DNA from: Abditibacterium sp.
Lineage (GTDB): Bacteria; Armatimonadota; Abditibacteriia; Abditibacteriales; Abditibacteriaceae
Length of the DNA stretch: 64,000 bases
Assembly (NCBI GenBank): GCA_965199495.1
Contig: CBDASK010000003.1
Span: 3,744,001 to 3,808,000 of the forward strand
Direction: 5' to 3'
The notes below the pieces were generated by a model, which searched no databases, was not told the DNA's origin, and was given only the letters and a program-made list of their open reading frames with translations. Below, in pieces: positions 3 through 63,806 of the stretch. Each line of letters begins with the position of its first letter. Positions within the stretch are counted from its first letter, which is position 1. The translations under genes and the position numbers were made by a program.

Positions 3-2291
3 GCAACTGGACCTACCGCAAACCTTAAGGGCGGGCAACTCGTAGGCAACTCGTTGACGCTTTCATCAGCTCTTAGGAGAAGCTCGACAGTCTCGACAGT
101 AATGAATAGTCTTCCTGCCCTTGTTGACACGCTTGGTCCGCAGTCTCCTAGGCCGCAAATTCCTATTCCGCGTGGGTCGCTTGAACCGCTTGTGCCGCTT
201 GCGCCGTATATGCCTTATGTGCCGCTTGAACCACCTTCTAGTCCTACGACTCAGAGTTGCATTATCGCTCTGACAGGGAGTCAAACCATCGCTGAGGGCG
301 ACGTGTTTATGGTGGGAAGCACAGTTCCTTCGGCCAATTTCACCATCATTCAGATATACCCAACATCGAGGGTGACGTGGACGGCGGTAAGTGGTCAGGT
401 GCGCGTGGTATCCAAATCGGCGTCCGCGCTCACTCTGCAACTGACCGATGTTGTCGTGCCAGGATCATCGTCAAACCGCACGACTTTCAACGGCACCATC
501 ACGGCGACGTTTGCGACTTCCAACAGCGCGCCTGCCGACATCGCGCTGTCTAAAGCCAGCGTCTTGGAGAAGCAGGCGGTGGGCACGACGGTCGGCACAT
601 TGTCGGCCACCGATTCCGATGCGGGCGACACTTTCACCTACGCTCTGGCGGCGGGCGAAGGCGATGATGATAACGCTTCGTTTGCCATCAGCGACAATGC
701 GCTCAAGACGGCAGAGGTCTTCGATGCCGCGACCAAAAGCTCGTATTCGATTCGCGTGCGCGTCACCGATGCGGCGGGCGCGACGTTTGAGAAAGCGTTC
801 GTGATCACCGTCATGCGAGAGAACCATGCACCCTCTTTAAGCAACGCGATTTTCGACGCCACGGCAAACACGGCGTTCTCGCAACAACTCGCGGGCACCG
901 ACGCCGATGGTGATGCGCTGACTTATCGCGTGACGGCGGGCAATTTGCCATTTGGTCTGACGCTTTCGGAGCAGGGATTGCTCGCGGGCACTCCGGTAAT
1001 AGATGGTTCACCTGTTGCCACCATTGAGGTTGCCGATGGCAATGGCGGAACTGGCACAGCGCAAATTACAATTATCGTGAAAGCGGCGGTTGTTCCGCCG
1101 ACTTTAGCGCCAACTCTTACGCCGGTTTCGCCCAAGACCAACGACACGTTGACCGTCGCGCCCAACGGCGATGCGGCATCTTACGCTTACCTTTGGAAGA
1201 AAAACGGCGTCGTTATCTCCGGCGAAAGTGGCGCAACACTCAATCTCGCCAAAGCTGGTAACGGTGGCAAAGACGATGTCATCACCTGCGAAGTGACAGC
1301 GACTAATGCGGGCGGCGCATCAGCCACGGCGACGGCACAGGTGACTGTTGCCAACTCGGCGCCCATCGCTATCAGCAGCAAAGGCGAAGTTGACGCCGAC
1401 ACCGAAAAGGCGTTCGTGCTCAACGCCTTGGACGCCGATGGCGATGCGCTCACTTACAAACGCGTCGGTGGCCCGCGCAACGGCGTGACGGCAGATATTC
1501 GCATTGACCCGACCGATGGCAAAACCAAACTGTTCTATAAAAGCCGCAAGTTTTATGGCGGCGTAGACATCATTCGCTTTGTGGTGTTCGACAGCAGCAA
1601 CAAACAATCGAACGAATCCACGCTGGGCATCAACGTGCTTTACACGCCGCCACCGCCCACCAACCGCGCGCCGATTGCGGGCGATACCAACATTGATACT
1701 TACGTCAATACTACGGTCGTCAAAGGCTTGCTCGGCTCCGATCCCGATGGCGACGCGATTACTTTTCGCATCGTGGGTAACGCCAAATACGGCCAGAGCG
1801 AAATCAAGCGCGATAACGATGAGCAATTCAAGCTGTTCTACACCAGTCTCAATCGCTTCTACGGCGACGACCGCGTGACGTATATCGTCACCGACAGTCG
1901 CGGCAAAGAATCGAATTTGGCGACGGTGAACATTCACTTTACCAATCGCGCGCCCCTCGCACAGGGCAATCGCATCGGCGTGGCTTCGGGCGCGCTGGTG
2001 TCGCAATATCTATTCGGGACGGACGAAGATGGCGACGCTTTGACGTTCCGCTTGGTCAACAATCCGCGCTATGGCAAGGGCGAAGTCAAGCTCGACCCGC
2101 AGGGCAAATGGCGGTTTTACTACACGTCGTTGCCGGGCTATGTTGGGCCAGATCAAATTACGTTTATCGCGATTGACCCGATGGGCAAAGAATCATCGGT
2201 TGCGGCCATTGATATTAACGTCGTGCGCGTTGGCGGTTCGGCGTCGGGCGCCTTGCAGCGCGGCGTGGCTCCTTCGAGCGGCGCTTCGTAA
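3..2291 (+). CDS. Secreted/surface protein with cadherin, Ig-like and three Big_9-like repeats; 5' end lies outside the window
   Basis: Frame is open from position 3. Cadherin motifs (ATDSDAGDTFTY, YSIRVRVTD) and three NxAP...DxDGDxLT(Y/F) repeats. Confidence 0.8.
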   Translation, partial: ATGPTANLKGGQLVGNSLTLSSALRRSSTVSTVMNSLPALVDTLGPQSPRPQIPIPRGSLEPLVPLAPYMPYVPLEPPSSPTTQSCIIALTGSQTIAEGDVFMVGSTVPSANFTIIQIYPTSRVTWTAVSGQVRVVSKSASALTLQLTDVVVPGSSSNRTTFNGTITATFATSNSAPADIALSKASVLEKQAVGTTVGTLSATDSDAGDTFTYALAAGEGDDDNASFAISDNALKTAEVFDAATKSSYSIRVRVTDAAGATFEKAFVITVMRENHAPSLSNAIFDATANTAFSQQLAGTDADGDALTYRVTAGNLPFGLTLSEQGLLAGTPVIDGSPVATIEVADGNGGTGTAQITIIVKAAVVPPTLAPTLTPVSPKTNDTLTVAPNGDAASYAYLWKKNGVVISGESGATLNLAKAGNGGKDDVITCEVTATNAGGASATATAQVTVANSAPIAISSKGEVDADTEKAFVLNALDADGDALTYKRVGGPRNGVTADIRIDPTDGKTKLFYKSRKFYGGVDIIRFVVFDSSNKQSNESTLGINVLYTPPPPTNRAPIAGDTNIDTYVNTTVVKGLLGSDPDGDAITFRIVGNAKYGQSEIKRDNDEQFKLFYTSLNRFYGDDRVTYIVTDSRGKESNLATVNIHFTNRAPLAQGNRIGVASGALVSQYLFGTDEDGDALTFRLVNNPRYGKGEVKLDPQGKWRFYYTSLPGYVGPDQITFIAIDPMGKESSVAAIDINVVRVGGSASGALQRGVAPSSGAS

Positions 2292-2305
2292 ATCAGTAAT
2301 AAATA

Positions 2306-3947: not shown

Positions 3948-4703
3948 TCACATCATCGCGACAATCCCAAAACGCCCGGCTTTCCCGTTTTGCCCGCGAT
4001 GCGAAAAAAACAAATCGGCGTCATCTTTCGGGCAAATCTCGCTGGTTTCAATTTGCGTAACTCCGGCACCTTCCAAATCGCGCCGAATCAGCGCGCGCAA
4101 ATCGAGCAGATACTTCTCGCCGCGCGGCTCCAATACGCTTTGGTCGTCGAACATTTCGGCGACTTCCGGCCCAACTTCGAGATTGCGCGCGCACAAACAC
4201 GGCCCGACGCCCGCGCGAACGTTGGCGGCTCGCGCGCCCAATTGCACCATCCTCGCCACGGCGCCCGATGCCACGCCCGCGAGGGCGCCACGCCAGCCCG
4301 CGTGAACGACGGCCAAAACGCGCGCGTCGGGATCGAACAACAAAACCGGCGCGCAATCGGCGACCAAAATTAAGAGCGGCACGCCGCTTTGCGCCGTAAT
4401 TAACGCATCGGTCGCGGGCAACGCCGAATCCCAATCCAAAGCGCCGCGCCCGGCGTGGCTGCACTCAACGACGGCGCACTGCGCGCCGTGAACCTGTTGC
4501 GCGGCGATCAATTTTGCGGCGTCGTAACCCATCGCTGCGGCGAGGGCGCGCCGATTGCGTCGCACGGTTTCGGCCTCGTCGCCGACATGAAAACCGAGGT
4601 TGAGGCTCGCGAAATCGCCTTGAGAAAAGCCGCCTTCGCGCGTGGTGATGGCGTGACGGAAATTGGGAAGATCGGAAAGGTTGGAAAATTGGAGCAGTTG
4701 CAC
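3948..4703 (-). CDS. pgeF: PgeF/YfiH family (laccase-domain) protein
   Basis: TTREGG, LNLGFHVGD, QVHG, ADCAPVL, HAGWRG and FFSHR motifs. GTG start inferred. Confidence 0.9.
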   Translation of the reverse strand: MQLLQFSNLSDLPNFRHAITTREGGFSQGDFASLNLGFHVGDEAETVRRNRRALAAAMGYDAAKLIAAQQVHGAQCAVVECSHAGRGALDWDSALPATDALITAQSGVPLLILVADCAPVLLFDPDARVLAVVHAGWRGALAGVASGAVARMVQLGARAANVRAGVGPCLCARNLEVGPEVAEMFDDQSVLEPRGEKYLLDLRALIRRDLEGAGVTQIETSEICPKDDADLFFSHRGQNGKAGRFGIVAMM

Positions 4704-4713
4704 GCCAGATATT

Positions 4714-4962
4714 TTAATCCACCTGCGCGCGCAATTCCGCGCGTTCTGCGGCGGATAAATCGTGCCAGACGCGGTTTTGCAATGCGCCTTCCAGCACATA
4801 GAGAAACACGATGTTGAGCCGCGACCGCTGGAGTTGCACCAGATCGAACGCGCCGACGCTGCCCAACTCTTCCAGTTGAGCGCGCGTCGTGACGCCGATG
4901 GAAGCCAGCGCCGCCGCGCATTTCGGCCCCAGATTGCGCATTTGCGTGATTTCGGAATTCAT
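4714..4962 (-). CDS. TfoX/Sxy C-terminal domain protein
   Basis: NLGPK...GV...L..LG...LYVLEGAL....W pattern, 82 aa. Confidence 0.8.
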   Translation of the reverse strand: MNSEITQMRNLGPKCAAALASIGVTTRAQLEELGSVGAFDLVQLQRSRLNIVFLYVLEGALQNRVWHDLSAAERAELRAQVD

Positions 4963-4966
4963 AATT

Positions 4967-5686
4967 TTATTTTCGCGTTAACTCGTTCCAGCGACTTGCC
5001 AACAAATTCGCGTATAAAACCGGCAGCAAACCGTAACAGCCCAAGGAATATCCATCGTTGACTTCGATTAACAGCGTGCGCCCATAGGCGGCTATGCCCC
5101 AGTCCATCGAACAGCCACGCGGCAGGTCATCCCACTTTTCAATGGCCGCTTCGACGGGCGCGAAGTCCACTGGCAAACGAAAATCACCTTTATAATGGCG
5201 AAAGCCGACCAATTCGCCGTTGCAGATATAGCCGCGAAACTCGCCCTGAAATTCGACGACATCCGGCCACCAAATCGGCGTTTCATCAGGTAAACCCGCC
5301 GTGCGAATCAGATCGCGATAAGCCCGCGCGACGTGGCCATCGAACAATTTACCGACGATTGGTTTGATGGAAATCGGCGATTTTTCGTCCACGATGCGCT
5401 CGCGAATTTCGCCCAAAGTTGATAGCCCGAACTCGCGACCGGCGAAATGCTCTAAGCCGCGCGGAATCGGTTCGAGTTGCGGTGGCTCTACGCCCAAACT
5501 TCTCAGCGCTCGCCAAATCGTCGGGATACCCGCGACGACCGGCGTTTGCTCGTCCAATGCGAGCGATGCGACATCGGCGGCGACGAACGGGCAGATTTCG
5601 TAGCCCAACGTTTCAAAGCCGCGAAACGCGGTGTATTCGTTGACGCCGCGAAATTGATTTTCGACCTGCTCGATGAAAACTTTCAT
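4967..5686 (-). CDS. ATP-grasp domain protein (DUF4343/R2K-like)
   Basis: IKP...KLFDG, EFRGYI and TLLIEVNDGYSLGCYG motifs. Confidence 0.75.
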   Translation of the reverse strand: MKVFIEQVENQFRGVNEYTAFRGFETLGYEICPFVAADVASLALDEQTPVVAGIPTIWRALRSLGVEPPQLEPIPRGLEHFAGREFGLSTLGEIRERIVDEKSPISIKPIVGKLFDGHVARAYRDLIRTAGLPDETPIWWPDVVEFQGEFRGYICNGELVGFRHYKGDFRLPVDFAPVEAAIEKWDDLPRGCSMDWGIAAYGRTLLIEVNDGYSLGCYGLLPVLYANLLASRWNELTRK

Positions 5687-5710
5687 GGAGCAAATTTAAC
5701 CACAATGGCT

Positions 5711-6923
5711 TCACTCAGGTTTTGGCGCTTCGATGGCGAGCAAAGCCGCGTGCGCCACTGGCATATCGCCCGCATCCAATGCGCGGGCGAAATTGTCTAT
5801 TTTTGCTTGCTGCTGCGCAGTTGCTCGGCTGTCGGTCAACTTCAATAAACGAAGGGCCAACCGCAAATCTTTCTCGACAAACGGAAAATCGGGTTGCGCC
5901 TCGCGTCGCCAGCGCAGAACGGTTTCCAAATCGCCAAACTCCGACGACTGAGACGGCTCGATTTGTGTGCCCTCGCCCCAATCGTTCCACGTCGCGATTT
6001 GCACGAAAGGCGGACTGATTTTTAGCGCGTTTCGCAGCGATTTGCTCAAAGTCTGGCCACCGTCTGCGGGAATAATTCCGTAAGAATCGCGGACTTTGGC
6101 TTCGCCATAAATATCGTGAAAGCGCGGAAATGCCACTGGTAGGACGACTGGCCAATCCCGACTTCGCGCAGCGAAATCTTCCGTCGCTTTCACGCCTTGC
6201 GCGGGAATCGGCCAATCGAAAGCGCCATCGGCTCCCGCGCGGCGACGATGTTCGCTCAAATAAATCGACGGCGTGGCTTGTGCTTTCAGAACCTGTTCCC
6301 ATTCGATGTCGGTTAAGCCGTCGTTGCCGAACGAAAGCCACACCGGTTTGCCCTCTATAGCGCAGATAAGCCGGATTTTGAAACCAATTTTTTCCCAACC
6401 AATGCACTTCATCGGCGGCGTGTTGAACGCGAGCGTCGGCCCCAATTTTTCCGTCTTTCACCAAAATTGGAATCGTCTGGTCTTCGTAGCAGACGGCGAA
6501 TTTCATGTTCAATCGCGCCGCCGTTTGCAAAACCAGTTCGCAGTTGCGATGAATCTGAGCGTAATCGAAATGGTCGGTGCGGCCATACCAATCCACGATA
6601 ACGCCATCAATCCCGGCTAACTTCATCGTGCGCAGATGATACTCGACAATCGCTGCATCGCTCGAATCGTAAGGGCCGATGATCGGATAATAATGCGAGG
6701 CGATGGGGCGTTTGCCGTTGACGACTTGAGTTGGATCGAACGCGTTCATCGTCCAATGCCAACCATAACTTTGGCTTTGTGGCGGCGCGCTAAACCACGG
6801 CATATAGTGCGCGAGCAGCAAAGGGCGCGGCGTGACTTTGGGAGTTTCATTGGCGCGCGCCAATTGGGGCGCAAACGTCACAACCAGCAGCCACAAAAGC
6901 GCGCGAAAACGAAGCAAAAGCAT
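5711..6923 (-). pseudogene. GH99/GH71-like glycoside hydrolase split by a frameshift near 6360
   Basis: N-terminal half (AHYMPWF, YPIIGPYDS, AGIDGVIVDWYG) is in one frame. C-terminal half (GKPVWLSFG, QIATWNDWGEGTQIEP) is in another. Removing one base joins them as ...YLRIEGKPV... Confidence 0.75.
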
Positions 6924-6945
6924 GGAGCAAGTTTGACAGAGAAAA

Positions 6946-8832
6946 TCATTCGCGCCGCAGCAACAATTCCAAATAGGTCTGTAATTGCTCCGCCGCTTTC
7001 TTGTTCATGCCGGGCGCGAGGGCGATTTCTTCGACCGAAGCCGCGCGGATTTTTTGCAGGCTCCCGAAATGTTGCAACAGCGCGTTGCGCCGCGTTTCGC
7101 CGATGCCGGGCACATCGTCCAAAACCGATTTAGTCGCGTCCTTGCCGCGCCGTTTGCGGTGATGCGTAATGGCGAAGCGGTGCGCCTCGTCGCGGATGCG
7201 CTGCAACATGTGCAGCGCTGGAGAATTGCGCGGCAAAGCAATCGGTTCTTTCTGGCCGGGCACAAACAACAGTTCAAACTGTTTGGCCAAACCGGCGACG
7301 GGAATATCCGACAGATTTTTCTCGCGCAACACATCAACAGCCACGCCCAATTGGCCTTTGCCGCCATCAATTAATAATAAATCGGGCAAGGGCAAAAACT
7401 TTTCGTCGCCATCCAAAGCGCGTTGAAAACGGCGTCGCAAGACTTCGCGCATCATCTCGAAATCGTTGGGTTCGGTGCCGCCGGTAATTGCCAACGCGTG
7501 CTTAATCGTGAAATGGCGATAATTTTTCTTGTCCGGTTTGCCGCCGGTGGCGACAACCATCGAGCCGACCGAGTTGGAGCCTTGAATCGTCGAAATATCG
7601 AAACACTCGATGCGTTCGGGCATAACGTCCAATTTCAACTGTTTCTGCAAATCTTCTAACAACGACTGATTGACCTGCGTCGCCGTCGCGTTATACGACA
7701 AATGTTCCTTCAAAGCCTGCGCCGCGTTGGTGTGCGCCAGTTCGACCGAACGCACTTTGTCGCCGCGTTGCGGTCGCCGCACGTCAATTAAGCGGCCCGC
7801 TTTCTCGCTCAGCCATTCGGCGATGGCGGCTTCGTCTTCCAGTTCGACGGGCACTAAAACTTCGCGCGGAATGGCGACCGGGCCTTCGTAATGCTGGCGT
7901 AGAAAGACCGAAATGACTTCGCTGTCTTCGCGCCCTTCGATGTTTTGCAAAAAGAAATGCTGGTCGCCGATGAGTTTGCCGTTGCGCACGATCAGCGTCG
8001 TGACCGAGGCGATGCCCGCTTCGATTTGCAGCCCGATGGCGTCGAATTCTTCGTTGCTTGCCGAAACGACCTGTTGCTTTTCCAACACCGATTGCACCGC
8101 TTCAATGGTATCGCGATAAGTCGCGGCCTGCTCGAATTCCATGTTCGCCGCTGCCTCGCCCATCGCGCTTTCCAGCGATTTCAAAACATCACCGCCGCGC
8201 CCTTCCAGGAAATCTTTCAACTCGCGCGCCTGAAACGCGTAGTTTTCCGGCGAAACCGCCGCGATGCAGGGCGCCGTGCAACGGTTGATATGATATTCCA
8301 AACACGGTTTGTCCAATAATTGCGAAGTGTCGCGCCACGGACAGCCACCGCGCCGGGCACCGCCGATGATGGCGCCCGTTCGCACCTTGAAAACGCGCTT
8401 GGCCAGAGACACCGTCTGGCGCATTTTGCCCGCTCCGGCGTATGGCCCGAAATAAGTCGCTTTGTCGTTGGCGGGCGCGCGCACTTCCAGCAACGCCGGA
8501 TACTTCTCGTTCAAAGTCAGCTTCAAATACGGATAACGCTTGTCGTCTTTAAGCCGGATATTATAAGGCGGCTTGTGCATCTTGACCAGATTATTTTCTA
8601 ATATCAAAGCGTCTTTCTCGGACGCGGTGATGATGGTTTCGATGTCGGTAACGAGTTTGGATAATTTGCGCGTCAGAGGCGAATGTCCGCCGTCTTTATT
8701 GAAATACGAGCGCACGCGGCTTTTGAGACTGCGCGCTTTGCCGATATAAAGAATTTTGCCGTGCTGATCTTTGTGAATGTAAACGCCGGGCGCATCGGGC
8801 AGGGCGGCGAGCTGTTCTTCGAGTGAGGCCAT
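6946..8832 (-). CDS. uvrC: Excinuclease ABC subunit C
   Basis: N-terminal GIY-YIG region (PGVY..LYIGKA), ECFDIS, DGGKGQ, RDEAHRFA and a C-terminal HhH. Confidence 0.97.
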   Translation of the reverse strand: MASLEEQLAALPDAPGVYIHKDQHGKILYIGKARSLKSRVRSYFNKDGGHSPLTRKLSKLVTDIETIITASEKDALILENNLVKMHKPPYNIRLKDDKRYPYLKLTLNEKYPALLEVRAPANDKATYFGPYAGAGKMRQTVSLAKRVFKVRTGAIIGGARRGGCPWRDTSQLLDKPCLEYHINRCTAPCIAAVSPENYAFQARELKDFLEGRGGDVLKSLESAMGEAAANMEFEQAATYRDTIEAVQSVLEKQQVVSASNEEFDAIGLQIEAGIASVTTLIVRNGKLIGDQHFFLQNIEGREDSEVISVFLRQHYEGPVAIPREVLVPVELEDEAAIAEWLSEKAGRLIDVRRPQRGDKVRSVELAHTNAAQALKEHLSYNATATQVNQSLLEDLQKQLKLDVMPERIECFDISTIQGSNSVGSMVVATGGKPDKKNYRHFTIKHALAITGGTEPNDFEMMREVLRRRFQRALDGDEKFLPLPDLLLIDGGKGQLGVAVDVLREKNLSDIPVAGLAKQFELLFVPGQKEPIALPRNSPALHMLQRIRDEAHRFAITHHRKRRGKDATKSVLDDVPGIGETRRNALLQHFGSLQKIRAASVEEIALAPGMNKKAAEQLQTYLELLLRRE

Positions 8833-8920
8833 GAAGGGAGTGTGCTTAAAGACGCGCGTTTAGAGAAGCAAGTCGCGAATAATTTGTTGGCCTATAGCTG
8901 TGTGCCGAGAGCGCGATTTT

Positions 8921-8985
8921 AATAGGACTTACGCAGTGAATTCTTCATTCGTAGCTTTTAAGCTACGAAGGGCGTAAGTCCTATT
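8921..8985. repeat. Short palindromic element with TAGGACTTACGC/GCGTAAGTCCTA ends
   Basis: Terminal inverted repeats plus an internal TTCGTAGCTT/AAGCTACGAA hairpin. Confidence 0.65.
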
Positions 8986-9108
8986 TAAAGGAAAATGAGA
9001 AAATTACAACTATTGCAAAAATGTTTGGGTTGGGCCAAACTCCGCTTCACTTCGTCCCTTTTAGAGAAAGTATCTCGCGGCGATTCTGATCAAATTTCGG
9101 AAATAATT

Positions 9109-9684: not shown

Positions 9685-9700
9685 CAATCGCGCATCAAAT

Positions 9701-9742
9701 AAAAACGAGCCGCTTCGATTCGATTGAAGCGGCTCGTTTTTT
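9701..9742 (+). terminator. Intrinsic terminator (bidirectional type)
   Basis: AAAAACGAGCCGCTTCGAT...ATTGAAGCGGCTCGTTTTTT. Confidence 0.75.
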
Positions 9743-9810
9743 ATTGCCACCCGTTAGCTGGAATAAAATCGAGTTGATCTTGGTGAATGTAAACTTGAAC
9801 GGTAATTCAA

Positions 9811-13008: not shown

Positions 13009-13013
13009 AGTCG

Positions 13014-54447: not shown

Positions 54448-54540
54448 TGGAGTTATAAAGGCGTCTCAATTATTTTGCGATTTTTGTGAAAACTTGTCAA
54501 GCTAAAGTTTGCTTTTTGGCTTCTGCCATACTTTAGTGCG

Positions 54541-55398
54541 ATGTCTTCTGATTCATGGGCCGTCGAGTGTAGCCACGTCGAGTTCGCGCCGCCGGGTTTA
54601 AATCTTCCGGGTTTGTCCGATTTCTCGCTGCAAGTCGCACAAGGCGAAATCGTGGTTTTGCTGGGCGAATCCGATTCGGGCAAAACGGCGGCGCTGCGCC
54701 TCATCAACGCTTTGACGATGCCAGATAACGGCGAAGTTTGGGTCGAAGGCCGCGCGATAAGCGAATGGAACGCCATCGAATTGCGCTGTCAAATCGGCAC
54801 AGTTTTGCAGGACGACTGCTTATTTTCCCACTTTTCGGTCGCCCAAAACGTCGCGTTGGTGCCCGAATTGTTGGGCTGGGAGCGCGCCAAAATCGAAGCG
54901 CGCACCCGCGAAATGTTGGAATTAGTCAATCTGCTGCCCGATCAATTCGCGGCCCAGTTTCCAGCTCAACTGTCGAACAGCCAGCGCCAACGCGTCGGCA
55001 TCGCGCGCGCACTGGCCGCGAATCAATCCGTTTTATTATTGGATGAACCTTTCGGTAATCTCGACCCTTTGGCACGAGAGAACTTGCGCGACGACTTTGC
55101 GCAGTTACGCCGCAAGTTGAACGTAACCGCGATCTTCGCGACGCAAGATTTGCGCGAGGCGTTATTGTTGGGCGATAAAATCGCGTTGCTGCGAGAGGGT
55201 AAATTAACGTTTTTCGGCACGCCACAACAGTTCGCTCTGACCGACAACCCCGACGCCGTGGCTTATCGCGCCACGATGGATTTGCCCGCATGGATGATGG
55301 CCGATGAAGGCGTGGACGAAACTGAAGAAATCGTCAAAGAACCGGGACTGCGCGCGAAGTTAAAGCGCGCGGGCAGACGGTTAAAAGCGAAATTTTAG
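54541..55398 (+). CDS. Orphan ABC ATPase (osmoprotectant type) with degenerate motifs
   Basis: GESDSGKT, LSNSQRQR, DEPFG and ATQD. Confidence 0.8.
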   Translation: MSSDSWAVECSHVEFAPPGLNLPGLSDFSLQVAQGEIVVLLGESDSGKTAALRLINALTMPDNGEVWVEGRAISEWNAIELRCQIGTVLQDDCLFSHFSVAQNVALVPELLGWERAKIEARTREMLELVNLLPDQFAAQFPAQLSNSQRQRVGIARALAANQSVLLLDEPFGNLDPLARENLRDDFAQLRRKLNVTAIFATQDLREALLLGDKIALLREGKLTFFGTPQQFALTDNPDAVAYRATMDLPAWMMADEGVDETEEIVKEPGLRAKLKRAGRRLKAKF

Positions 55399-55497
55399 GT
55401 TTGCGCAGTGGCAGAAAACCTACCGCTCCCTATAACTCCAAAATTCCGCCGCGATTTCGGTGGGCGTTGGAGCGATAGTCTTCATTGAAATTAAATG

Positions 55498-57567
55498 CTA
55501 ATTCGGCATTAGCAAATGGCCGACGCGTCCGTTTAAACCGTCAACGGCCAGCCAGAACAGCATCATCGTTACGTCGCCCAGCGCTAACCCCAAAAAGCCC
55601 GGCATCGCTTTGCGATAGGAATCGTTGCCGCCAAAACGCGTGATCAAAGTTTTGGCGAGCCAGCCCAGAAAGAACGAGAACCAGAACATCTGCGCCGCGA
55701 ACGTCAGGCTGAGCAGATAGCCAATCGGGTGAAACGGAAACCACGCGAAGCGGCTGCGCATCAGCATCATGCCCCACGTCAGGGCGGCGCCGATGCACAG
55801 CCACAGCCAGTTTGTGACGGGCGCGGTCGCTTTGTCTTGCATAATGTTCTCGGTGAATTTCGCCGGGCTTTGCGATAAAAATTCGCGCGCCCAACTGCTG
55901 GTCAGCGACAAACCGCCGTTTTCGTAGCCCAATCGCACCACCATCCACAAACTCATGCCAAGCGAAATCAGCGTGACGACTGAGATCAATTTCAATAGTG
56001 GACGAGCCGGAATTTTGTTGTCGTGCGCCAACTTGAAACTATGCACGAACGACGGCATAATGAACGCGCGCATATGAAAAATCAGCCCGGCCTGTACGAA
56101 CGATGCGGGCACCAAGCCCGCCGTGGCTCCTGTCAGCCAACCCAAACTCGATGGCAACAGCCGGTTAATCGCGTTGAGCGGATACATATCGTGCAACAAA
56201 AACAAGACGCCGCCCTCGACGGCCATGCGCGATAGAACAATCGCGAACACCAGATAACTCGCCCACAACGTCAGAGCTATGTCGAATCTAACGCCCAGCA
56301 CAAGGGTAAAACCGATGAGAAAAGCAAAAGACAGCGCGAAACCCCAGAACGCCGCCGGATACGATAATGCCTCGGTTCCCTCGTCGGCGCGCGCGCGTTC
56401 GCGGCCAAAGGCGCGGCGCAAAATATGTTTGGCGTGTTCGCGCCCGGTGTAGACCACCAAAAATGTGTAGGCCAGATAAGCGCCGTAAACCTGAAAACCC
56501 TGAAACAATTTGCCGGGAAAAGTCAGCGCCGCGTCGGGCAGAGTTGACGGCATGAAACCGGTGTAGTAGGCGCCGATCATCTGGAACTTCATGAACAAAT
56601 AGAAGAACCACAACGAAAACGAAACTTCTGAAGTTAGCAAATATGTGATGCCGACTGCAATCGGAAAGACCGAAACGTTGACCCAGCCCAACTGATTCCA
56701 CGGCGCTTCGGTAAATAAACTGCCCGTGTCAATGCCGAGCGGAAAATCCGGCACGTCGGGAAAGTAAAGGTGCAAACCGCGCATCAATTGAATGAAAACC
56801 GCGATGCCAAAACCGATCCACATCATCGGATTGCGGAAGAATCGCCCGAACGTCCCAAATTTGTCGGGTTCGTCCATGTCCTCGACCATCTGCAACGGCA
56901 ACTTGAGCAGGGGAAACGAAAGCGCCTCGTTTTGCGCCCACTGCTGGCGCAGCATCACGCTCAGGCACGCCAGCATAATGTAAATCGCCAGAATCGCCAG
57001 CGTCCACACCGCCAAAGGCAAAAGCCACGCCGCCCACGGAATCGAAGCGCCGGGCCGCAAACCCTCATACCAACCGGCGACAACCGTCTGATTATAAGCG
57101 CCCGTGGCTGGATCAATCGAAGGCGTCATCCACGGTTTCATCGCCGGTTGCAGAAATTCGAGCCATTTGTTTTCGCGCGTCGCATAATAAAACGGCGCGA
57201 TGAGAACTGGAACGATCAAATTTTCGGCGCCGTGCCCCGGCACCAGACTGGAAAACAAACACGAAATATAAACCGTCAGCGCTTCGTTGCGCGTGAAAGA
57301 TAATTTTTTGGAAAGCGTGCGCACGAGCGGATTGACCAGCAAAACCAAAATCAACAACGCGCCGATGGCGCCCGGCGGCAGGTGCGTGCCGCCCAAAAAC
57401 GTGTTGAGCAGTTTGAAATCAATGACCGGCAGCAAATATCCCAGCACGAACGCCAGCGCGATGCAAATGGCGATGACGCGAAACGAGATGCCGCGCTCGC
57501 GCGCCGTGCGGTTATCGCTGTTGGCTTGAGTGGCAGATTGCGGCGCGGAGGCGAAAGGGGCTTGCAT
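55498..57567 (-). CDS. Large polytopic membrane protein (DUF6785/DUF6784-like), paralog 2
   Basis: Shares HLPPGA, PGHGAEN, PFYYATRENK and QWAQNEAL.FPLL with 36397-38628. Confidence 0.75.
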   Translation of the reverse strand: MQAPFASAPQSATQANSDNRTARERGISFRVIAICIALAFVLGYLLPVIDFKLLNTFLGGTHLPPGAIGALLILVLLVNPLVRTLSKKLSFTRNEALTVYISCLFSSLVPGHGAENLIVPVLIAPFYYATRENKWLEFLQPAMKPWMTPSIDPATGAYNQTVVAGWYEGLRPGASIPWAAWLLPLAVWTLAILAIYIMLACLSVMLRQQWAQNEALSFPLLKLPLQMVEDMDEPDKFGTFGRFFRNPMMWIGFGIAVFIQLMRGLHLYFPDVPDFPLGIDTGSLFTEAPWNQLGWVNVSVFPIAVGITYLLTSEVSFSLWFFYLFMKFQMIGAYYTGFMPSTLPDAALTFPGKLFQGFQVYGAYLAYTFLVVYTGREHAKHILRRAFGRERARADEGTEALSYPAAFWGFALSFAFLIGFTLVLGVRFDIALTLWASYLVFAIVLSRMAVEGGVLFLLHDMYPLNAINRLLPSSLGWLTGATAGLVPASFVQAGLIFHMRAFIMPSFVHSFKLAHDNKIPARPLLKLISVVTLISLGMSLWMVVRLGYENGGLSLTSSWAREFLSQSPAKFTENIMQDKATAPVTNWLWLCIGAALTWGMMLMRSRFAWFPFHPIGYLLSLTFAAQMFWFSFFLGWLAKTLITRFGGNDSYRKAMPGFLGLALGDVTMMLFWLAVDGLNGRVGHLLMPN

Positions 57568-57651
57568 AAATTGGGTTGTGGATTATAACAGTCTGGCAGA
57601 ATTGCAGTTATTCGTCACTCAAACTTTCATAAGCCATAACTCGCGTCCCCA

Positions 57652-58866
57652 TTAATTTTTATTCGCGCGCCCGTTCCCAAACGCTGCGCTGGCGCGTTTG
57701 ACAATCGCGATGACGGCGTCCTCGTCTTTCGAGGCGCCCGGATACAAATCGAAACTGTTGCCGGGATACCATTGCCAGAGTACCGTAATCGGAACGTTGG
57801 CCTTCGCCGTGGCTGCGAGGGCGCTCGCGAAATAATCCTGCTGGAATTGCGGGCTATAAGCCAACACTTTGCTACCGGGCAAGCGGCGGTCGAGCGACAA
57901 ACCCCATTCTTCGACCATGAAAGGTTTGCCGATTTGGTCGGCGTAACTTTTGTAAACGCCCAGATTTTTCCATTCGCCCAAGGGCAACTCGAACGGGTAG
58001 GGCGGCGCGAGCGGCTGCTTCAACTTTTTTAATTCGTCGTCAATGTTGGGATAGATATGCACCGACGCGAAATCAATATTTTTGTCCGCCCACAACGTTT
58101 TCCAGTAAGGCTGCCCGCTTTTGTCGCGGACGGGGCCGTCGGGCGAAACATGGAGCAAACCGCCCGCGTTGACCAGATGATTTGGATCGTTGCGTTTCAA
58201 TTCCGCCGCCGCGCGGTGAATGAAGCTCAAATAATTATCGACATCGCGCGATTCATCGGCCAAATTCAGCGTTTTATCTTCGTGGTAGCGCAAACCAAAC
58301 GGCACGATTTCGCCTGTAATCGAGTAACCCAGAATCGTCGGATCGTCCTTGTAAACGCGCTTGTTGATGCTGTTAACGCGATTGGGCGTGCGCGTATAAA
58401 TCGGTTTTAAGCGCTCGAAATTCGCCGGGTCGGTGATGTCGAACGGCGGTTTGGAATGGCGCCCGGTTTCGTAGGTCAGTGTGCTGAAATCAATGATGAC
58501 TTTCATGTTCTCCTGACGAGCCACGTCCAGTAACAAGTCCATGCGCTGCCAGACCGCTTCGGACAAATGATGATTCAAATCGCCATCGTTGAAGTCATAA
58601 ATCAGGGAAGTCGCGCGAAACAGCGAAAAGCCCGCGTTTTTGGCATCGCGAAAAATGCGCAGCACCTGCACGCGCGAAGTCGGGTTGCGCGCGACGCAAA
58701 GCTGATAACTGGTGAAGCCCAGCGCTTTGTATTCGTGTTCGTTGAGCCGAAACTGGTTGCCCTCGACGCCCACGAAATTGCGTTTCGCGGGCGTGGCGTG
58801 CGCGCCGGTTAAAAGCGAACCCAGTAAAATGGCGCAGAGCAGAAAAGAAAATTTTCTAAATAACAT
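57652..58866 (-). CDS. GH5-like glycoside hydrolase (mannanase-like)
   Basis: YKDDPTIL, DPNHLV, IDFASVHIYP and GKPFMVEEWG. Confidence 0.8.
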   Translation of the reverse strand: MLFRKFSFLLCAILLGSLLTGAHATPAKRNFVGVEGNQFRLNEHEYKALGFTSYQLCVARNPTSRVQVLRIFRDAKNAGFSLFRATSLIYDFNDGDLNHHLSEAVWQRMDLLLDVARQENMKVIIDFSTLTYETGRHSKPPFDITDPANFERLKPIYTRTPNRVNSINKRVYKDDPTILGYSITGEIVPFGLRYHEDKTLNLADESRDVDNYLSFIHRAAAELKRNDPNHLVNAGGLLHVSPDGPVRDKSGQPYWKTLWADKNIDFASVHIYPNIDDELKKLKQPLAPPYPFELPLGEWKNLGVYKSYADQIGKPFMVEEWGLSLDRRLPGSKVLAYSPQFQQDYFASALAATAKANVPITVLWQWYPGNSFDLYPGASKDEDAVIAIVKRASAAFGNGRANKN

Positions 58867-59016
58867 AGAGATTGCTAAAACGATTTTGCGGAGGTTGTTA
58901 AAGACCTTAGTTTCCCCGATTTGTTGCGGTGAATTTCAGATTGAATCGAGGGTATTTTTAAATTGGGTTTGAGTCAGTAGCGCGAAGCGGGGCGAGAAAC
59001 GTATCCTACAAAGGGC

Positions 59017-60024
59017 ATGGAATCGCAAAAAGTCGCTGTTTTGGGCGCGGGCAGTTGGGGCACCGCTTTGGCGTGTCTGGCGGCGCGCAACGGTCACGAT
59101 GTCGCGCTGTGGGCGCGCGACGAAAATTTGGTCGCCGCCATCAATCGCGAGGGCGCCAACCCTAAATATCTGCCTGGTGCCGACCTCAAAAACGTGCGCG
59201 CCAGCGCCGAATTGGACGAAGTTTTGAGCGGCGCGCAGTGGATTATTTCCGCCGTGCCGTGCGCGGGCGTGCCCGCCTTGGCGCCGCTCGTCGGGCAGTT
59301 GCGCGCGCGCGATGCGGTTGTGGTGAGTGGAACCAAAGGTTTGCATCCCGAAACCGGCGCGCGTGCCCAACAGTTGTGGTGCGCGGGCGCCGATTTGGGA
59401 AACGAACATTACGCGGCGCTGTCGGGGCCGAATTTGGCGCGCGAAATCGCGGCGGGCGTGCCGACTTCGTCGGTCGTGGCTTCGCTCTCAGCCACGACGG
59501 CTGACCGCGCGCAGGATTTGTTCACTTCGCAACTGTTTCGCGTTTATACCAACACCGATTTGTTGGGCGTCGAGCTGGGCGGCGCCTTGAAAAACGTTGT
59601 GGCGATTGCCGCCGGGATTTGCGACGGCTTCGAGTTCGGCGACAACGCCAAAGCTGCTTTGATGACGCGTCACTGGCGCGAGATGACGCGTCTGGCCGTC
59701 GCGTGCGGCGCGCGCGAAACCACGCTCTTTGGCCTGAGCGGAGTGGGCGACTTATTTGCAACCTGCGCCAGCCCGCACTCGCGCAATCACTCTTTGGGCG
59801 AGCGTCTGGGGCGCGGCGAAAACTTGGACGATGCGCGGCGCGAAGTCATGCAAGTCGTTGAAGGCGTGCATACCGCGCGCGCCGCACTCAATTTGGCGCG
59901 TAAACACGGCGAGGAGTTGCCAGTGACACAGCAATTGGCCGCCGTTTTGTTCGAGGGCCAACCGGTGCGCGAAGCGATTGGCGCGCTGATGAACCGGCGC
60001 GGCAAAGCCGAAATCGAGGATTGA
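59017..60024 (+). CDS. gpsA: NAD(P)H-dependent glycerol-3-phosphate dehydrogenase
   Basis: GAGSWGTALA, SGPNLAREI, GGALKNV, GDNAKAAL and SRN. Confidence 0.96.
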   Translation: MESQKVAVLGAGSWGTALACLAARNGHDVALWARDENLVAAINREGANPKYLPGADLKNVRASAELDEVLSGAQWIISAVPCAGVPALAPLVGQLRARDAVVVSGTKGLHPETGARAQQLWCAGADLGNEHYAALSGPNLAREIAAGVPTSSVVASLSATTADRAQDLFTSQLFRVYTNTDLLGVELGGALKNVVAIAAGICDGFEFGDNAKAALMTRHWREMTRLAVACGARETTLFGLSGVGDLFATCASPHSRNHSLGERLGRGENLDDARREVMQVVEGVHTARAALNLARKHGEELPVTQQLAAVLFEGQPVREAIGALMNRRGKAEIED

Positions 60025-60066
60025 TCCATCGTCCCGTCCGTAATACCAAAAGGAACCAAAACAAAA

Positions 60067-60480
60067 ATGTCAGATACCAATATTAAAAGCAAAGGCGATG
60101 TCGTGGACGAAGTGGCGGCGCTGGTTGATATGCCGCAGACCAAAGTGGACGCGGTTTTAAAAGCGTTTGTCGAAACAATCAAGCGTCAGGCGGCGAGTGG
60201 CGGCGAAACGCGCATGGTCGGCTTCGGTTCGTTCAAAGTCACGCATCGCGCGTCGCGCACCTCGCGCAATCCGCAAACCGGCGAGCCAATCGAAGTCGGC
60301 GCGCACAACGCGATTCGATTCGTGCCGGGTCAAGCCCTCAAAGACGCGGCGACTTCGTCTTTCCAAGACGCGGCGCCCAAAGCCAAGCCCGCCAAAGCGA
60401 AAAAAGCGCCTGACGAAGCCGCAAATGTCGTTCAGGCCGAAGCGAAGAAAGAGAAGAAAACCAAAAAGAAAAAAGCGTAG
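60067..60480 (+). CDS. HU family DNA-binding protein with Lys/Ala-rich tail
   Basis: GFGSF, RNPQTGE and F.PG..LK, followed by PKAKPAKAKK...KKKA. Confidence 0.92.
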   Translation: MSDTNIKSKGDVVDEVAALVDMPQTKVDAVLKAFVETIKRQAASGGETRMVGFGSFKVTHRASRTSRNPQTGEPIEVGAHNAIRFVPGQALKDAATSSFQDAAPKAKPAKAKKAPDEAANVVQAEAKKEKKTKKKKA

Positions 60481-60528
60481 GATCGCGCGATTTGACACGG
60501 CGCGGGCCAACGCGTTTAAAATTAAAAC

Positions 60529-61491
60529 GTGGATTTATTAACCCCTTCGCTGCCTCTGATCGAGGCGCTCCAACGTTATCGCTGGCTCGCCGAGCCGATG
60601 AAACTGTTTTCGTTTCTCGGCTCGGAACTTTTTTTTCTGCTGCTGTTGCCGCTGGTTTATTGGAACATCAACCGTCGCGTCGGCGCGCGATTGGGACTTT
60701 TATTTATCGGCAACGTTTTGATTAACGATTGGATTAAAGTCATCTTCGCGATGCCGCGTCCGTTTTGGTCGCAGGGCATCGCGCAGTTGGCGTCCAAGCC
60801 CGAAGTCACGTTTGGCTTTCCGTCGGGCCACGCGCAAAACACCGCCGCGATCTGGACTTTTTTGGCGCTGCAAACCAAACGCCCGCGCTTGTGGGTAATT
60901 TTATCGTTCGCGCTTTTAGTTTTAGTCGCGCTTTCGCGAATGTTCGTCGGCGCCCATTATCCGCTCGACGTGGTCGGCGGCGCCATTTTTGGCTATTTAT
61001 TACTGGGAATTTTTCTGCGCGCCGAGCGACCGTTATTGCGGTGGCTGGGGCCAACGTTGCCACGGCGCCTTGGATTTTTAGTTGTGTCGTGCATTATATT
61101 GAGCCTATTTTATTGGCTGGCCGCGCGCCGTTTGGTTGTGCCCTCGCCAAACTCGCCCGCCTTCGAGACCTATATTGAATCCATCAATGGCGTGAACTTC
61201 GCCAAACGCGTCGGCGCGTTGTTTGGCATGGGCAGTGGCTTGATACTCGCGTTTCGCATCGTGCCGTTTGCCATCGAAGCGACGCTCGTCCAAAAAATCG
61301 CGCGTTTCGTCGTTGGCATTGGCGGTTTGATGATTGTTCGCGCGGCGACTTCCAAACTGTTGCCCGACAATGGGCCGTGCGCGTTTACCGGTTATTTTCT
61401 GTTGACGTTTTGGGTGACTCTCGTTGCGCCGCTGATTTTTACGCGCTTAAAGTTGATGCAACTCGAAGCGCGCGAGCCAGTCGCCGCGTAA
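60529..61491 (+). CDS. PAP2 family phosphatase
   Basis: K....PRP, FPSGHA and SRMFVGAHYPLD. Confidence 0.92.
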   Translation: MDLLTPSLPLIEALQRYRWLAEPMKLFSFLGSELFFLLLLPLVYWNINRRVGARLGLLFIGNVLINDWIKVIFAMPRPFWSQGIAQLASKPEVTFGFPSGHAQNTAAIWTFLALQTKRPRLWVILSFALLVLVALSRMFVGAHYPLDVVGGAIFGYLLLGIFLRAERPLLRWLGPTLPRRLGFLVVSCIILSLFYWLAARRLVVPSPNSPAFETYIESINGVNFAKRVGALFGMGSGLILAFRIVPFAIEATLVQKIARFVVGIGGLMIVRAATSKLLPDNGPCAFTGYFLLTFWVTLVAPLIFTRLKLMQLEAREPVAA

Positions 61492-61592
61492 ATGCGCCGA
61501 CTGAGAACTCAATCCTAAACACTTGCCAACGCACCGCGCGTGGGTGCGATTTGTCCAACGAATGGCGCATCATTTTTGCAGCGCCCGCCGCC

Positions 61593-63806
61593 ATGAACTC
61601 TCGATTCTTTATTTCTGCTCTTGGTTTATCGTTGGCCCTGATGCCCGCCGCGCGCGCGCAGGGCGTACTCGATCCCGGTGTGGTTAATCCGTTGGGCCGC
61701 AATCCCGTCGTTGGTGCGCCCGGTCAGACCGATATGACGGGCGACGTGGCTGCTCCCGCGCGTCCGACCAATGTCGTGAACATTAACGCGAATAATCTGG
61801 CAAATTTGCCGACATTGCTCAACAGTGCTGGCGCGATTTCGCTGGGCGTTTATGCCGAAGATTTGGACAAAAATCCCGCCGCGCGCGACGCCTTATTGAA
61901 CTATGTCGGGCAGGGCGGAACGGTATTTTTGCATACCGATGCTGCGCGTTTGTTTGGCTATCGCACCGTGGCCGCGCGCGAAACCACGAATCGGCAAGTC
62001 GGCCAACTTTATGGGCGCGCGCGCGCGGCAGTGCCGTTTGGAACTGTCCCGCTTTTGTGGAACGATGGCGCTAACGCGGAGCGCGGCCCCGTTCGCGCAC
62101 CCGGCATCAACAACGTGTTTTATACGCTGCGTGCGGGCGATGATTTGGTCATTGACCATCCGGCGGGCACGCCGTTGTTGCAGGTCAGCGGCAGTGGCTC
62201 GAACAGTCCGCTTTACGCGGCGGCGATTGCGCCTTATGGCGCGGGCTGGGCGGTTTTTACGCCCGATTTCATTGACCAAAAGCGTGGCGATGGCGCCGCT
62301 TTCGCGCGCAATTTATTGAAGTTGGTCGGCGGCTCGCGCTACGTCGGCGTTTCGCAGGCCGCCATCGGGAGCGGCGACGGATTGTTGGCGGCGCTCAGTC
62401 GGGCTGCGCAAAACGGCAACGGCCAGAGCGCGCCTTTGCCAGGTTTTGGCACCAATTTGCCGACAGCCCGCGTAAATAACGGCGCCGTGATGGGCCAAGC
62501 GCCCGCCGCCTTGCAAAACGAGCAAATCATAATGAAAGGAAACGCGCCGGTGCCGCCGGAAACTGCAGCCACGGCGCCAACGGACATGTCGGCGCCCGGC
62601 CCGGTTTTGCTGCTGACGCGCAACGAAGCCACGGCGTTTGGCACGGCCTTACAAAACGAGCCGCAGGGACGCGGCGCGGTGGCCCTCGCGATTTTGCGCG
62701 CGCGCGTCGCGTTGCTCAATGGCGATGCGCAAGCGGCGCAAACGCAACTGGCGTTGGCCGATCGTCTGGCGCCCAGCACGGGCGAAACTCAATTTTTGCG
62801 CGGCGCGGCGGCTATTGCGGGCGCGACTTTCATCGGTTCTGTCTCGCCCGACCGCGCGAGTAGCGCCAATTTGGCGGCCAATTCGTTCGCGGCGGCGGGC
62901 CGCGCCAAGCCCTATTTTCTGGCGCCCGGTTCGGCCAACGGCGTGTTTTTCGACAATATCACTGGCGCCAATCTCAATTCGCTGGGCGCGCAGATCAATC
63001 GGTTTTCGCAGGTTCTGGGATTGGAGCCGCCGCTCTCGCTCGTTGTTGGCAATGGCGCTTCGGCGGTAACGATTCGCTATTTCGATGGCGATAGCGCGGT
63101 GCCTTTCGTGCAACGCGCCGCCGCCGAATTGGCGAGTTCCGAGCTGTTTAGCGGATTGGTGGACGGTCAGGAAATTCTGCTGTTTCCCACGCCCGAACTT
63201 TACCAGCGTTATCGCGCCGCCGCCGGTTTGGAGCAGCAAAATGTGCCGCTCCCGGCGGCCTCGCTGGGCGATGTGGTGGATGGACGCATTTTGATGGTTT
63301 CGATTCCCGCCGCGCGCCCGATTGCCGTTGGCCCCGGCGGCGTGCCGCGCCCGCTACCATTGCGGGCCACCAGCGCGAATTTGCTGGCGCGCTTCGAGAC
63401 CTACGCGCTCTTCGATTCTTATGTCGGCGATAGCAATGGTCGCATTCCGTCGTGGATGGTGCTGGGACTTTCGACGCTGGCCGATTTGACGCTCAATGGC
63501 GACACGCTCAGCGCGCAATACGATCAGGAATTGCGCCGCTATGCGGCAACGGGCAATCTGCTGGCGCCGCGCCAATTCGACGCGCAGTTGGGCGAGTCTT
63601 CGGTATTGGCGCTGGCGCAATCCACGGCCATTATGCGCTATTTCTATGCGCGCTTTGGCGCGGGCAACGTCGCCGAAACCATCCAGCGCATCGGCGCCGG
63701 TCAAAGCGTGGACGACGCGCTCACAGCCACGACGGGCCTCAACGAGTTGGGATTGTTCCGCGAATGGCGCAACGCCCAGTTTGAGGGACTCAATTTGCCC
63801 AATTAA
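61593..63806 (+). CDS. Secreted protein with a C-terminal peptidase MA-like domain
   Basis: Signal peptide; C-terminal IP.W...GL...; YF...FG; AL...TG pattern. Confidence 0.55.
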   Translation: MNSRFFISALGLSLALMPAARAQGVLDPGVVNPLGRNPVVGAPGQTDMTGDVAAPARPTNVVNINANNLANLPTLLNSAGAISLGVYAEDLDKNPAARDALLNYVGQGGTVFLHTDAARLFGYRTVAARETTNRQVGQLYGRARAAVPFGTVPLLWNDGANAERGPVRAPGINNVFYTLRAGDDLVIDHPAGTPLLQVSGSGSNSPLYAAAIAPYGAGWAVFTPDFIDQKRGDGAAFARNLLKLVGGSRYVGVSQAAIGSGDGLLAALSRAAQNGNGQSAPLPGFGTNLPTARVNNGAVMGQAPAALQNEQIIMKGNAPVPPETAATAPTDMSAPGPVLLLTRNEATAFGTALQNEPQGRGAVALAILRARVALLNGDAQAAQTQLALADRLAPSTGETQFLRGAAAIAGATFIGSVSPDRASSANLAANSFAAAGRAKPYFLAPGSANGVFFDNITGANLNSLGAQINRFSQVLGLEPPLSLVVGNGASAVTIRYFDGDSAVPFVQRAAAELASSELFSGLVDGQEILLFPTPELYQRYRAAAGLEQQNVPLPAASLGDVVDGRILMVSIPAARPIAVGPGGVPRPLPLRATSANLLARFETYALFDSYVGDSNGRIPSWMVLGLSTLADLTLNGDTLSAQYDQELRRYAATGNLLAPRQFDAQLGESSVLALAQSTAIMRYFYARFGAGNVAETIQRIGAGQSVDDALTATTGLNELGLFREWRNAQFEGLNLPN

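Follow-up and report, generated by a model that had tools for sequence, protein, structure and literature searches.

Same-strand spacing of an abundant non-palindromic word in an Abditibacterium chromosome, a candidate self tag

The word in the window and on the chromosome

We analysed a 64-kb stretch of the genome of Abditibacterium sp. (hereafter the window, G000:C3:3744001-3808000, where G000 is the 4.8-Mb assembly in three contigs, C1, C2 and C3), in which the word CGTGGCTG recurs on both strands. The initial annotation had counted at least 42 copies by hand, about 24 on the + strand and 18 on the - strand, and had judged about 30 of them to be longer. We found exactly 42 copies, 24 on + and 18 on -, at the same positions; 30 of the 42 extend to CGNCGTGGCTG and 21 to the 12-mer CGNCGTGGCTGC (Table 1). 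The smallest gap between + copies was 357 bp and every other gap was at least 705 bp, and the smallest gap between - copies was 1158 bp. The inverted pair and the near-pair noticed earlier are real, and both fold as hairpins. In addition, one copy lies beyond the called genes, in agreement with the earlier remark on occurrence outside genes, and the low-GC genes in which no copy had been seen (9811-10890, 16255-17808 and 22146-22583) indeed hold none.

Two low-GC orphan open reading frames (ORFs) of the window, inserted after rplQ and zwf and without Pfam match, each follow one copy of a direct repeat of about 53 bp. Two copies of this repeat were found on the chromosome, both in the window. 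The Rfam search of the window gave five tRNAs and nothing else. A NuiA-like nuclease inhibitor gene lies at 19807-20358 of the window, distant from the EndA/NucA-like nuclease gene at C3:2980250.

Table 1. Copies of the word and associated repeats in the window (positions count from its first letter)
Feature	Position	Strand	Remark
CGTGGCTG core, first copies	starts 4454, 11389, 14871, 16176, 20088, 22073, 22997, 24119	+	
CGTGGCTG core, continued	starts 28642, 32290, 32647, 34295, 36113, 37091, 39394, 40751	+	
CGTGGCTG core, last copies	starts 41777, 47373, 51184, 53010, 54334, 57103, 57808, 61745	+	
Whole + set, 24 copies of CGTGGCTG	4454..61752	+	
CGTGGCTG, read as CAGCCACG on +, first copies	starts 1321, 5112, 7338, 12553, 17938, 24804, 25970, 27140, 28630	-	
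CGTGGCTG, read as CAGCCACG on +, last copies	starts 31788, 33147, 39094, 40391, 45966, 51956, 59489, 62566, 63724	-	
Whole - set, 18 copies	1321..63731	-	
Overlapping inverted pair inside sbcD (starts 28630/28642)	28629..28650	.	5' CG common to both copies; hairpin z -5.1
Inverted near-pair in glycerol-3-phosphate dehydrogenase gene (starts 59475/59489)	59475..59496	.	7-mer core on +, 8-mer on -; hairpin z -3.3
Copy outside called genes	12553..12560	-	between adk and next called ORF
Direct repeat of about 53 bp, copy 1	16161..16213	+	holds 12-mer; directly upstream of tag-free low-GC orphan ORF 16255/16312-17808
Direct repeat of about 53 bp, copy 2	22058..22110	+	directly upstream of tag-free low-GC orphan ORF 22146-22583

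The chromosome C3 contained 3083 copies of the word (1525 and 1558 on the two strands), about 0.65 copies per kb. Under Markov models of orders 2-5, it was the 8-mer with the highest z-score, with 3091 observed versus 237-1428 expected. Our own gene calls (3578 genes, 82% coding, low-GC genes partly missed) contained 2810 copies, whereas ten synonymous-codon shuffles gave 268 ± 14 (about 10x) and a dicodon null trained on the same genes gave 684 (about fourfold excess). For CGVCGTGGCTG, there were 1926 copies in the called genes versus 57 after codon shuffling (34x) and 136 under the dicodon null (14-fold). The enrichment suspected earlier from base composition thus persisted under both Markov and codon-preserving nulls. 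The refined consensus was CG[ACG]CGTGGCTG(C)(W), with graded flanks around a strict core: single substitutions at the seven positions of CGTGGCT occurred 4-132 times, versus 2179 perfect copies.

Most sites (91%) were coding, and the word was read in all six frames, mainly as xVAA, [AT]AT[AP], xSH and xWL, which bears out the varied frames reported before. In short intergenic spacers, there were 126 copies versus 8.5 expected. Inverted pairs closer than 30 bp were in 2-4x excess; 17 pairs were intergenic, and some form hairpins between convergent genes that look terminator-like by their sequence. Only 13 of the 3083 sites had a 26-bp context in common with another site. A replichore bias was not found, as 1074 of 2112 sites (51%) were on the leading strand, whereas the FtsK-orienting polar sequences (KOPS) of the same genome were polar (299 of 380 leading). 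Here, origin and terminus were set from KOPS, and the origin matches dnaA at C3:2027255. A classical Chi or KOPS role and a role in Okazaki priming were ruled out by this absence of bias.

Within genes, the word runs counter to the usual codon choice and sits at positions at which the protein departs from that of untagged relatives. The rare alanine codon GCT followed C-GTG in 1784 of 3007 cases (59%), compared with 14570 of 149070 (10%) overall. Among 211 ortholog pairs, residues at motif codons were identical to those of untagged relatives in 269 of 522 cases (52%), versus 66% for amino-acid-matched residues. Furthermore, the tripeptides ATA (60 vs 23), DVA (49 vs 25) and AWL (15 vs 5) were raised. 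Conservation at synonymous sites in relatives had been put forward as a check, and it was only partly found. In the related genome G011, 169 of 249 sites were kept (68%), versus 33-57% for 11 control words, and third positions were kept more often than expected (247 of 292 vs 217). In a second relative, G004, third positions did no better than background (166 of 262 vs 180), and 25 of 88 sites only were common to G000 and G004. These comparisons show that the tag turns over between species while its density holds.

The predicted depletion in islands was evident. The density was 0.19 per kb in 5-kb bins below 50% GC and 0.61-0.72 in bins of at least 53% GC; solitary low-GC ORFs held 8 sites in 80.8 kb, and the small contigs were depleted too (C2, 6 copies in 64.6 kb; C1, 2 in 24.7 kb). 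At the flanks of solitary low-GC ORFs, sites were about twofold raised in a post hoc test on our own ORF calls, and we read the raised counts as gap compensation. A polar rule for foreign-gene insertion was rejected: there were 15 upstream sense sites versus 5.3 expected, but three of the four flank classes were raised across thresholds. Polarity around sites was likewise dropped, as GC content at third codon positions, skews and divergence were all symmetric. Among viral loci longer than 4 kb, there was no clearly tagged virus; the top densities were 0.35 per kb (77 loci) and 0.47 per kb (at least 80 loci), values that rest on few copies and include the seed match.

Same-strand spacing

What is new here is that copies in the same orientation avoid each other to about 1.5 kb and opposite copies do not. 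For same-orientation pairs, the observed-to-expected ratio was 0.04-0.13 below 300 bp, 0.25 at 300-500 bp and 0.68 at 750-1000 bp, and about 1 beyond 1.5 kb. At 50-500 bp, there were 37 same-strand pairs versus 213 expected, whereas opposite pairs numbered 205 versus 213. Furthermore, of the 316 pairs at 40-600 bp, 52 were on the same strand, compared with 158 ± 9 under permutation of strand labels (lowest of 2000 runs, 126). The spacing was independent of transcription direction (observed/expected: sense-sense 11/94, antisense-antisense 5/73, sense-antisense 152/166), and it was present on both replichores. It repeats in 600 kb of G011 (same 20/65, opposite 65/66). Each strand is tiled on its own.

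The bare 8-mer and CGVCGTGGCT[ACT] took part in the exclusion, and most mid-core mutants did not, at low counts. No same-strand spacing was found for five control 8-mers, and with the motif masked no other frequent 6-8-mer was spaced (best z -2.6 of 6324 words). A surplus of +...- over -...+ pairs at 0.3-1.5 kb (347 vs 305) was not significant. Avoidance of deletion between close direct repeats was rejected as a cause, since exclusion was unaffected by a match at the variable base and frequent 10-mers in general cluster (median ratio 1.35).

For comparison, we used 913 kb of Neisseria loci with DNA uptake sequences (DUS) and 592 kb of metagenome loci dense in uptake signal sequences (USS; 58 loci retained out of 75, with redundant sequence trimmed). 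Inverted pairs formed the centre of the loci in both samples, which biases them. The USS pairs at 50-500 bp numbered 42 of 86 expected on the same strand and 63 of 86 on opposite strands, and with inverted pairs masked 25 of 40 and 44 of 40 (p=0.03), a weaker form of the same signature. The exclusion in G000 was stronger than in the DUS sample (p=2e-5) and the USS sample (p=0.026), so a strand-specific reader inside the cell stays a candidate. The study of Karlin et al. (1996) reportedly treated both strands separately, and the same-strand signature may therefore be known for USS already. Even USS spacing is credited to that study in an excerpt of PMC1939737.

The spacing suggests that the benefit of a copy saturates per strand, and that the reader would act on one strand or directionally, over a reach like that of a recombination tract. 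The reach of exclusion matches the Neisseria conversion tracts of 1,127-1,728 nt given in an excerpt of PMC2397512.

Relatives, other tags and candidate readers

Within the genus, CGNCGTGGCTG had 2180 copies in G000, 1838 in G011 and 739 in G004, versus 17-59 in the other ten genomes (3 of 13 enriched). The word was enriched in 3 of 31 genomes of the class and in 3 of 151 sampled from the phylum. These three genomes form one clade (RpoA tree 100/100; ComEA tree 100/99), and 24 ComEC clusters at 67-86% identity indicate that it is larger in metagenomes. The sole named match of the clade ComEC was that of A. utsteinense, at 46% identity over residues 100-260. In G004 (loci L053-L062), many copies of CGTGGCTG lay within a GTAG-type hairpin repeat, which is arranged in inverted pairs separated by short spacers. 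The first 12 bases of this repeat, which we take to be REP/REPIN-like (REP, repetitive extragenic palindrome), occurred 25 times in 200 kb, and it was not seen as a family in G000 or G011.

In addition, seven other genomes of the family, from other genera, carry different tags based on GTACT, as palindromes or inverted pairs. RAGTACTY palindromes numbered 2695-4371 in each of G014, G018, G032, G033, G034 and G035, versus 0-117 in the other 21 family genomes. The palindromes GCAAGTACTTGC and TCGAGTACTCGA of these six genomes (loci L479-L488, L504-L508) were hyper-abundant and evenly spaced. The GTACT consensus was GCAAGTACTTGC in G014 and (WWTC)GAGTACTC(GAWW) in G035, and 15 of 73 sites in G014 lengthen to perfect arms of at least 10 further bases. 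The seventh genome, G017 (loci L494-L498), had a fourth word, TCGAWWTCGACCGTACTY, single or as a 26-bp palindromic pair, with 96 half-sites in 100 kb, 60 of them in inverted pairs. All four other-word genomes that were sampled were under-dispersed below 0.5-1 kb. One palindrome, or one pair, provides for both strands simultaneously, in keeping with a reading per strand.

A de novo word search found no tag in 100-kb samples of G002, G006, G007, G009, G010, G012, G013 and G038, nor in 78 kb of G031 or 55 kb of G016. For G001, G003, G005, G008, G015, G036 and G037, the search covered known words on 11-17 kb. As a side observation, GTAC was strongly avoided in G000, G004, G006, G007, G011 and G038 (observed/expected 0.01-0.11). 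In G002, G010 and G012 it was not avoided (0.76-0.90), and the orphan N6/N4 methyltransferase of C3:1807692 was not found in these three; G004 was the exception. CTAG was avoided too (0.04 in G000). The GTACT palindromes look like highly iterated palindromes (HIPs), outside cyanobacteria.

The competence genes that had been named as a check were present: comEA, comEC, dprA and the pilB/T/C/D cluster were intact by Pfam, and comF was recognized by motif only. A ComP-like receptor was not identified among 24 pilin-like genes, nearly all DUF1559-type by appearance and none profiled across genomes. In 23 of 24 sequences of the clade ComEC, the DNA-binding OB fold contains an inserted Arg-rich loop; in the structure model, this loop (residues 211-219) sits between two strands. 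The nuclease domain of the clade ComEC has lost metal ligands, as TRSDAAH replaces H-x-D-x-D-H and two later histidines are gone. According to excerpts of PMC12455585 and PMC13539106, ComEC's OB fold binds DNA at the channel entrance, and pneumococcal ComEC nuclease is likely inactive, with EndA as the substitute. The candidates for the reader are the altered ComEC of the clade or another pilus or periplasmic protein. ComEA and the EndA-like nuclease were rejected as readers, since neither had a clade-specific feature and the latter was present in 5 of 5 genomes tested.

Weighing the uptake reading and its rivals

The initial annotation had proposed a self-DNA uptake or protein-binding signal of this lineage. 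The genome-wide, lineage-specific DNA signal stands, whereas a DUS in the strict sense is not established, given the strong same-strand-only spacing. The explanation that we favour, on which we consider the balance to be even, is that the word is an uptake-type self tag, specific to the lineage, kept by natural transformation and recombination, and read strand-specifically.

The word matches uptake sequences in every sequence-level test except orientation-neutral spacing. Like USS and DUS, it is a non-palindromic 9-12-mer at about one per 1-1.5 kb on both strands, with a strict core and graded flanks (the DUS sample had 1319 perfect copies and 0-92 per single-mismatch variant). It is likewise read in all frames, raises tripeptides, is absent from recently acquired genes, forms inverted pairs at gene ends, has lineage dialects and occurs with competence genes. 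Excerpts of PMC2817400, PMC2397512 and PMC1939737 report the same hallmarks for uptake sequences, and that of PMC2817400 places them at poorly conserved residues, with their tripeptides raised. The differences are an unrelated phylum and word, the 91% coding share, the lack of an identified ComP-like receptor (DUS are read by the minor pilin ComP in the excerpts of PMC3630211, PMC7811141 and PMC2397512), and a same-strand-only exclusion of CGTGGCTG that is much stronger and longer-reaching than in the USS or DUS samples.

In such a system, some step would handle the two strands of the donor molecule as separate routes. This could be, for example, engagement or nicking of the strand threaded inward by ComEC, or alternatively protection of, or RecA loading on, the imported single strand. 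The word-bearing strand would be passed on more often, and new copies would spread. The spread would stop once that strand has a copy within the length of a recombination tract, and copies on the other strand would be irrelevant. The relatives may meet the same two-strand need by palindromes (G014, G018, G032-G035) or inverted pairs (G004, G017).

Several results weigh against this reading. The density was lower between genes (0.34 per kb) than within them (0.72 per kb), unlike in Neisseria, and around sites there was no 5'/3' asymmetry of composition or divergence. Spacing in the DUS sample was mild and near orientation-neutral (188 of 272 expected same, 220 of 272 opposite, at 50-500 bp), and an excerpt of PMC1939737 states that USS orientation does not affect uptake by H. 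influenzae; a plain DUS mechanism therefore does not predict the observed strength. Furthermore, competence genes do not set tagged genomes apart, since all 27 family genomes have comEC and 25 of the 27 have comEA. The ComEC changes were not found in the GTACT-tagged G014, G017, G032 and G035, and untagged G003 and G009 had degenerate nuclease motifs as well. Moreover, every gene of this clade, which sits on a long branch, carries private changes.

In the first and main rival, the word would be a repair tag of the Chi kind that lacks replichore bias, and a Dna2-like nuclease-helicase of the clade would read it in place of the missing AddAB; we regard this as possible but rather unlikely. A two-ended break (e.g. 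after drying) would leave two ends, and for each of them a site in its own orientation would have to lie no more than about 1 kb away; this directly predicts same-strand-only spacing. The candidate reader is, by its sequence, a 1421-aa protein with an Fe-S PD-(D/E)xK nuclease and an SF1B helicase, apparently Dna2/Bad-like (C3:4111365-4115630). Relatives of about 40% identity occur in Chloroflexota, Planctomycetes and Armatimonadota. Bad is described as a processive 5'-3' helicase-nuclease in an excerpt of PMC7430649, which reports no sequence specificity for it. Within the genus, all three tagged genomes and none of the ten untagged ones had the gene; G017 had it as well, and 21 further clusters (62-89% identity) suggest that it belongs to the core genome of the clade. 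However, six of the seven GTACT-tagged genomes were without it, and it was intact in G016, whose 55 kb searched gave no tag. An AddA-like helicase was found in all ten untagged congeners, an AddB-like nuclease in nine of them, and neither in any of the ten tagged genomes, three of which are only 63-87% complete. G000, G004 and G011 have just one UvrD-family gene (about 800 aa), and no RecB, AddA or AddB was found in them. An AddA-like helicase was found in G015 too. Nevertheless, five untagged genomes (G016, G031, G036, G037 and G038) are also without AddAB, and with just 1-3 changes of tags and AddAB over the tree the correlation is weak.

The Dna2-like gene of G011 (C5:36235-38455) is a pseudogene that lacks its N-terminal half and has one TGA and one frameshift. 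In orthologous DNA, G011 had fewer sites (41 private vs 80, p=0.0005), and its ratio of perfect to one-mismatch sites was 129/56 versus 170/44 (p=0.028), so that its sites look partly decayed. However, G011 still carries 1838 11-mers, and one control word was likewise asymmetric between G000 and G011 (95 vs 65, p=0.02). Moreover, G004 carries an intact gene, and yet its dispersed perfect sites in DNA orthologous to G000 are fewer than those of G011 (20 vs 55). G000, G011 and G004 could be aligned three ways over 9 kb. C1 and C2 have not taken up the word, which also speaks against a repair tag. On its side, relatives of the window covered all 30 bins in both the lichen run and the rock run.

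In the second rival, a protein that organises the chromosome or tracks along DNA (nucleoid protein, SMC or translocase) would bind or load at the word in a polar manner and would need it at regular intervals on each strand. This would account for the even spacing, the graded flanks, the independence from transcription direction and the twofold pile-up at the flanks of solitary low-GC ORFs, as though gaps were compensated. To our knowledge, organising sites are palindromic (matS, SBS, parS) or replichore-polar (KOPS). The word CGTGGCTG is neither, whereas KOPS are polar here, and no protein was found as a candidate. According to excerpts of PMC1939737 and PMC13756078, spacing led to the proposal of a structural role for USS and HIP1, but the switching of words between lineages would fit self-recognition better. 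We consider this rival improbable.

A third rival, which seems to us quite improbable, is a one-strand methylation mark for strand choice in mismatch repair, or a methylation ratchet like that of HIP1. With methylation on one strand only, each strand would have to be covered independently; mutS and mutL are present, and the other tags of the family contain GTAC and resemble HIPs (excerpt of PMC4390886). However, no fitting methyltransferase was common to the three genomes among the C5, N6/N4 and MmeI-like candidates. The orphan N6/N4 methyltransferase was in 22 of 27 genomes but was not detected in G004, a search of five other genomes (G011 and G004 among them) found the MmeI-like enzyme in none, and the C5 enzymes were not in common with G000. 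The top N6 match in G000, presumably DpnA-like, adjoins a restriction-type gene; G011 and G004 have matches of similar score. In addition, third-position divergence from G011 was flat, at 0.25-0.26, from 15 to 1500 bp from sites. Finally, it is very improbable that the word is a by-product, be it of bias in codons or peptides, of a mobile repeat, of terminators or of close direct repeats being selected against: alanine-rich peptides are common and many G004 copies lie within the repeated hairpin pair, but the word was 10-34x over codon shuffles with 91% coding sites and 13 of 3083 with common context, its spacing was the same with or without a variable-base match, and no other word was spaced.

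Like Chi, the present word is short and non-palindromic, and it would act strand-specifically. It differs from the Chi sites of RecBCD/AddAB in having no leading-strand bias and in the missing RecB, AddA and AddB. It resembles HIP1 in its hundreds to thousands of copies per Mb, quasi-regular spacing, lineage word switches and proposed link to transformation (excerpts of PMC4390886 and PMC13756078), and differs in not being palindromic and in that no matching methyltransferase common to its three genomes was found among the C5, N6/N4 and MmeI-like candidates. It is an abundant short chromosome word like KOPS but not polar, and, unlike REP/REPIN elements, copies in G000 are dispersed, mostly coding and without common flanks, from which G004 partly differs. 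We assign the word to none of these classes: it lacks defining features of Chi, HIP1, KOPS and REP, and its spacing is not the orientation-neutral one of DUS/USS. In excerpts of the literature, sequence-specific uptake tags are described for Neisseriaceae and Pasteurellaceae only, and HIP1 for cyanobacteria. No description of this word or of a tag of this lineage was found there; supplementary oligomer tables could list such words.

Returning to the self tag of uptake type, we tentatively extend it to a bolder proposal, itself rather doubtful. The Abditibacteriaceae may have a self-tag system in which each strand needs its own copy every 1-2 kb, and the word would have been switched or re-invented several times (CGTGGCTG; GCAAGTACTTGC; TCGAGTACTCGA; TCGACCGTACT), always without AddAB. 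A new single-strand reader would be the transformation channel or the Dna2-like nuclease-helicase. If true, uptake sequences, HIP1 and Chi would be connected as forms of a single recombination signal at the level of the strand. What makes such words spread has long been asked, and one small family offers natural replicates: four words, palindromic and non-palindromic, tagged and untagged sisters, and one genome with a lost candidate reader. Same-strand-only spacing is a simple statistic for single-strand action, applicable to USS, DUS and newly found genome-wide words to sort mechanisms. If the tag gates transformation, it would be a practical key to genetics in the lineage.

Some further features of G000 were observed. 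The single 16S gene lies at C3:1860971-1862487, and called protein genes start within about 400 bp, so 16S and 23S appear unlinked. Three families of long repeats were present on C3: 131 copies of a constant unit of about 28 bp with unique flanks (CRISPR-like), about 157 GTAG-type hairpins, and another hairpin family of 119 copies, six of them in the window. A Druantia DruE-like helicase is encoded at C3:976554-981911, and an XPB-like helicase adjoins a Tfb2/WYL protein beside mutS at C3:2195630-2200171.

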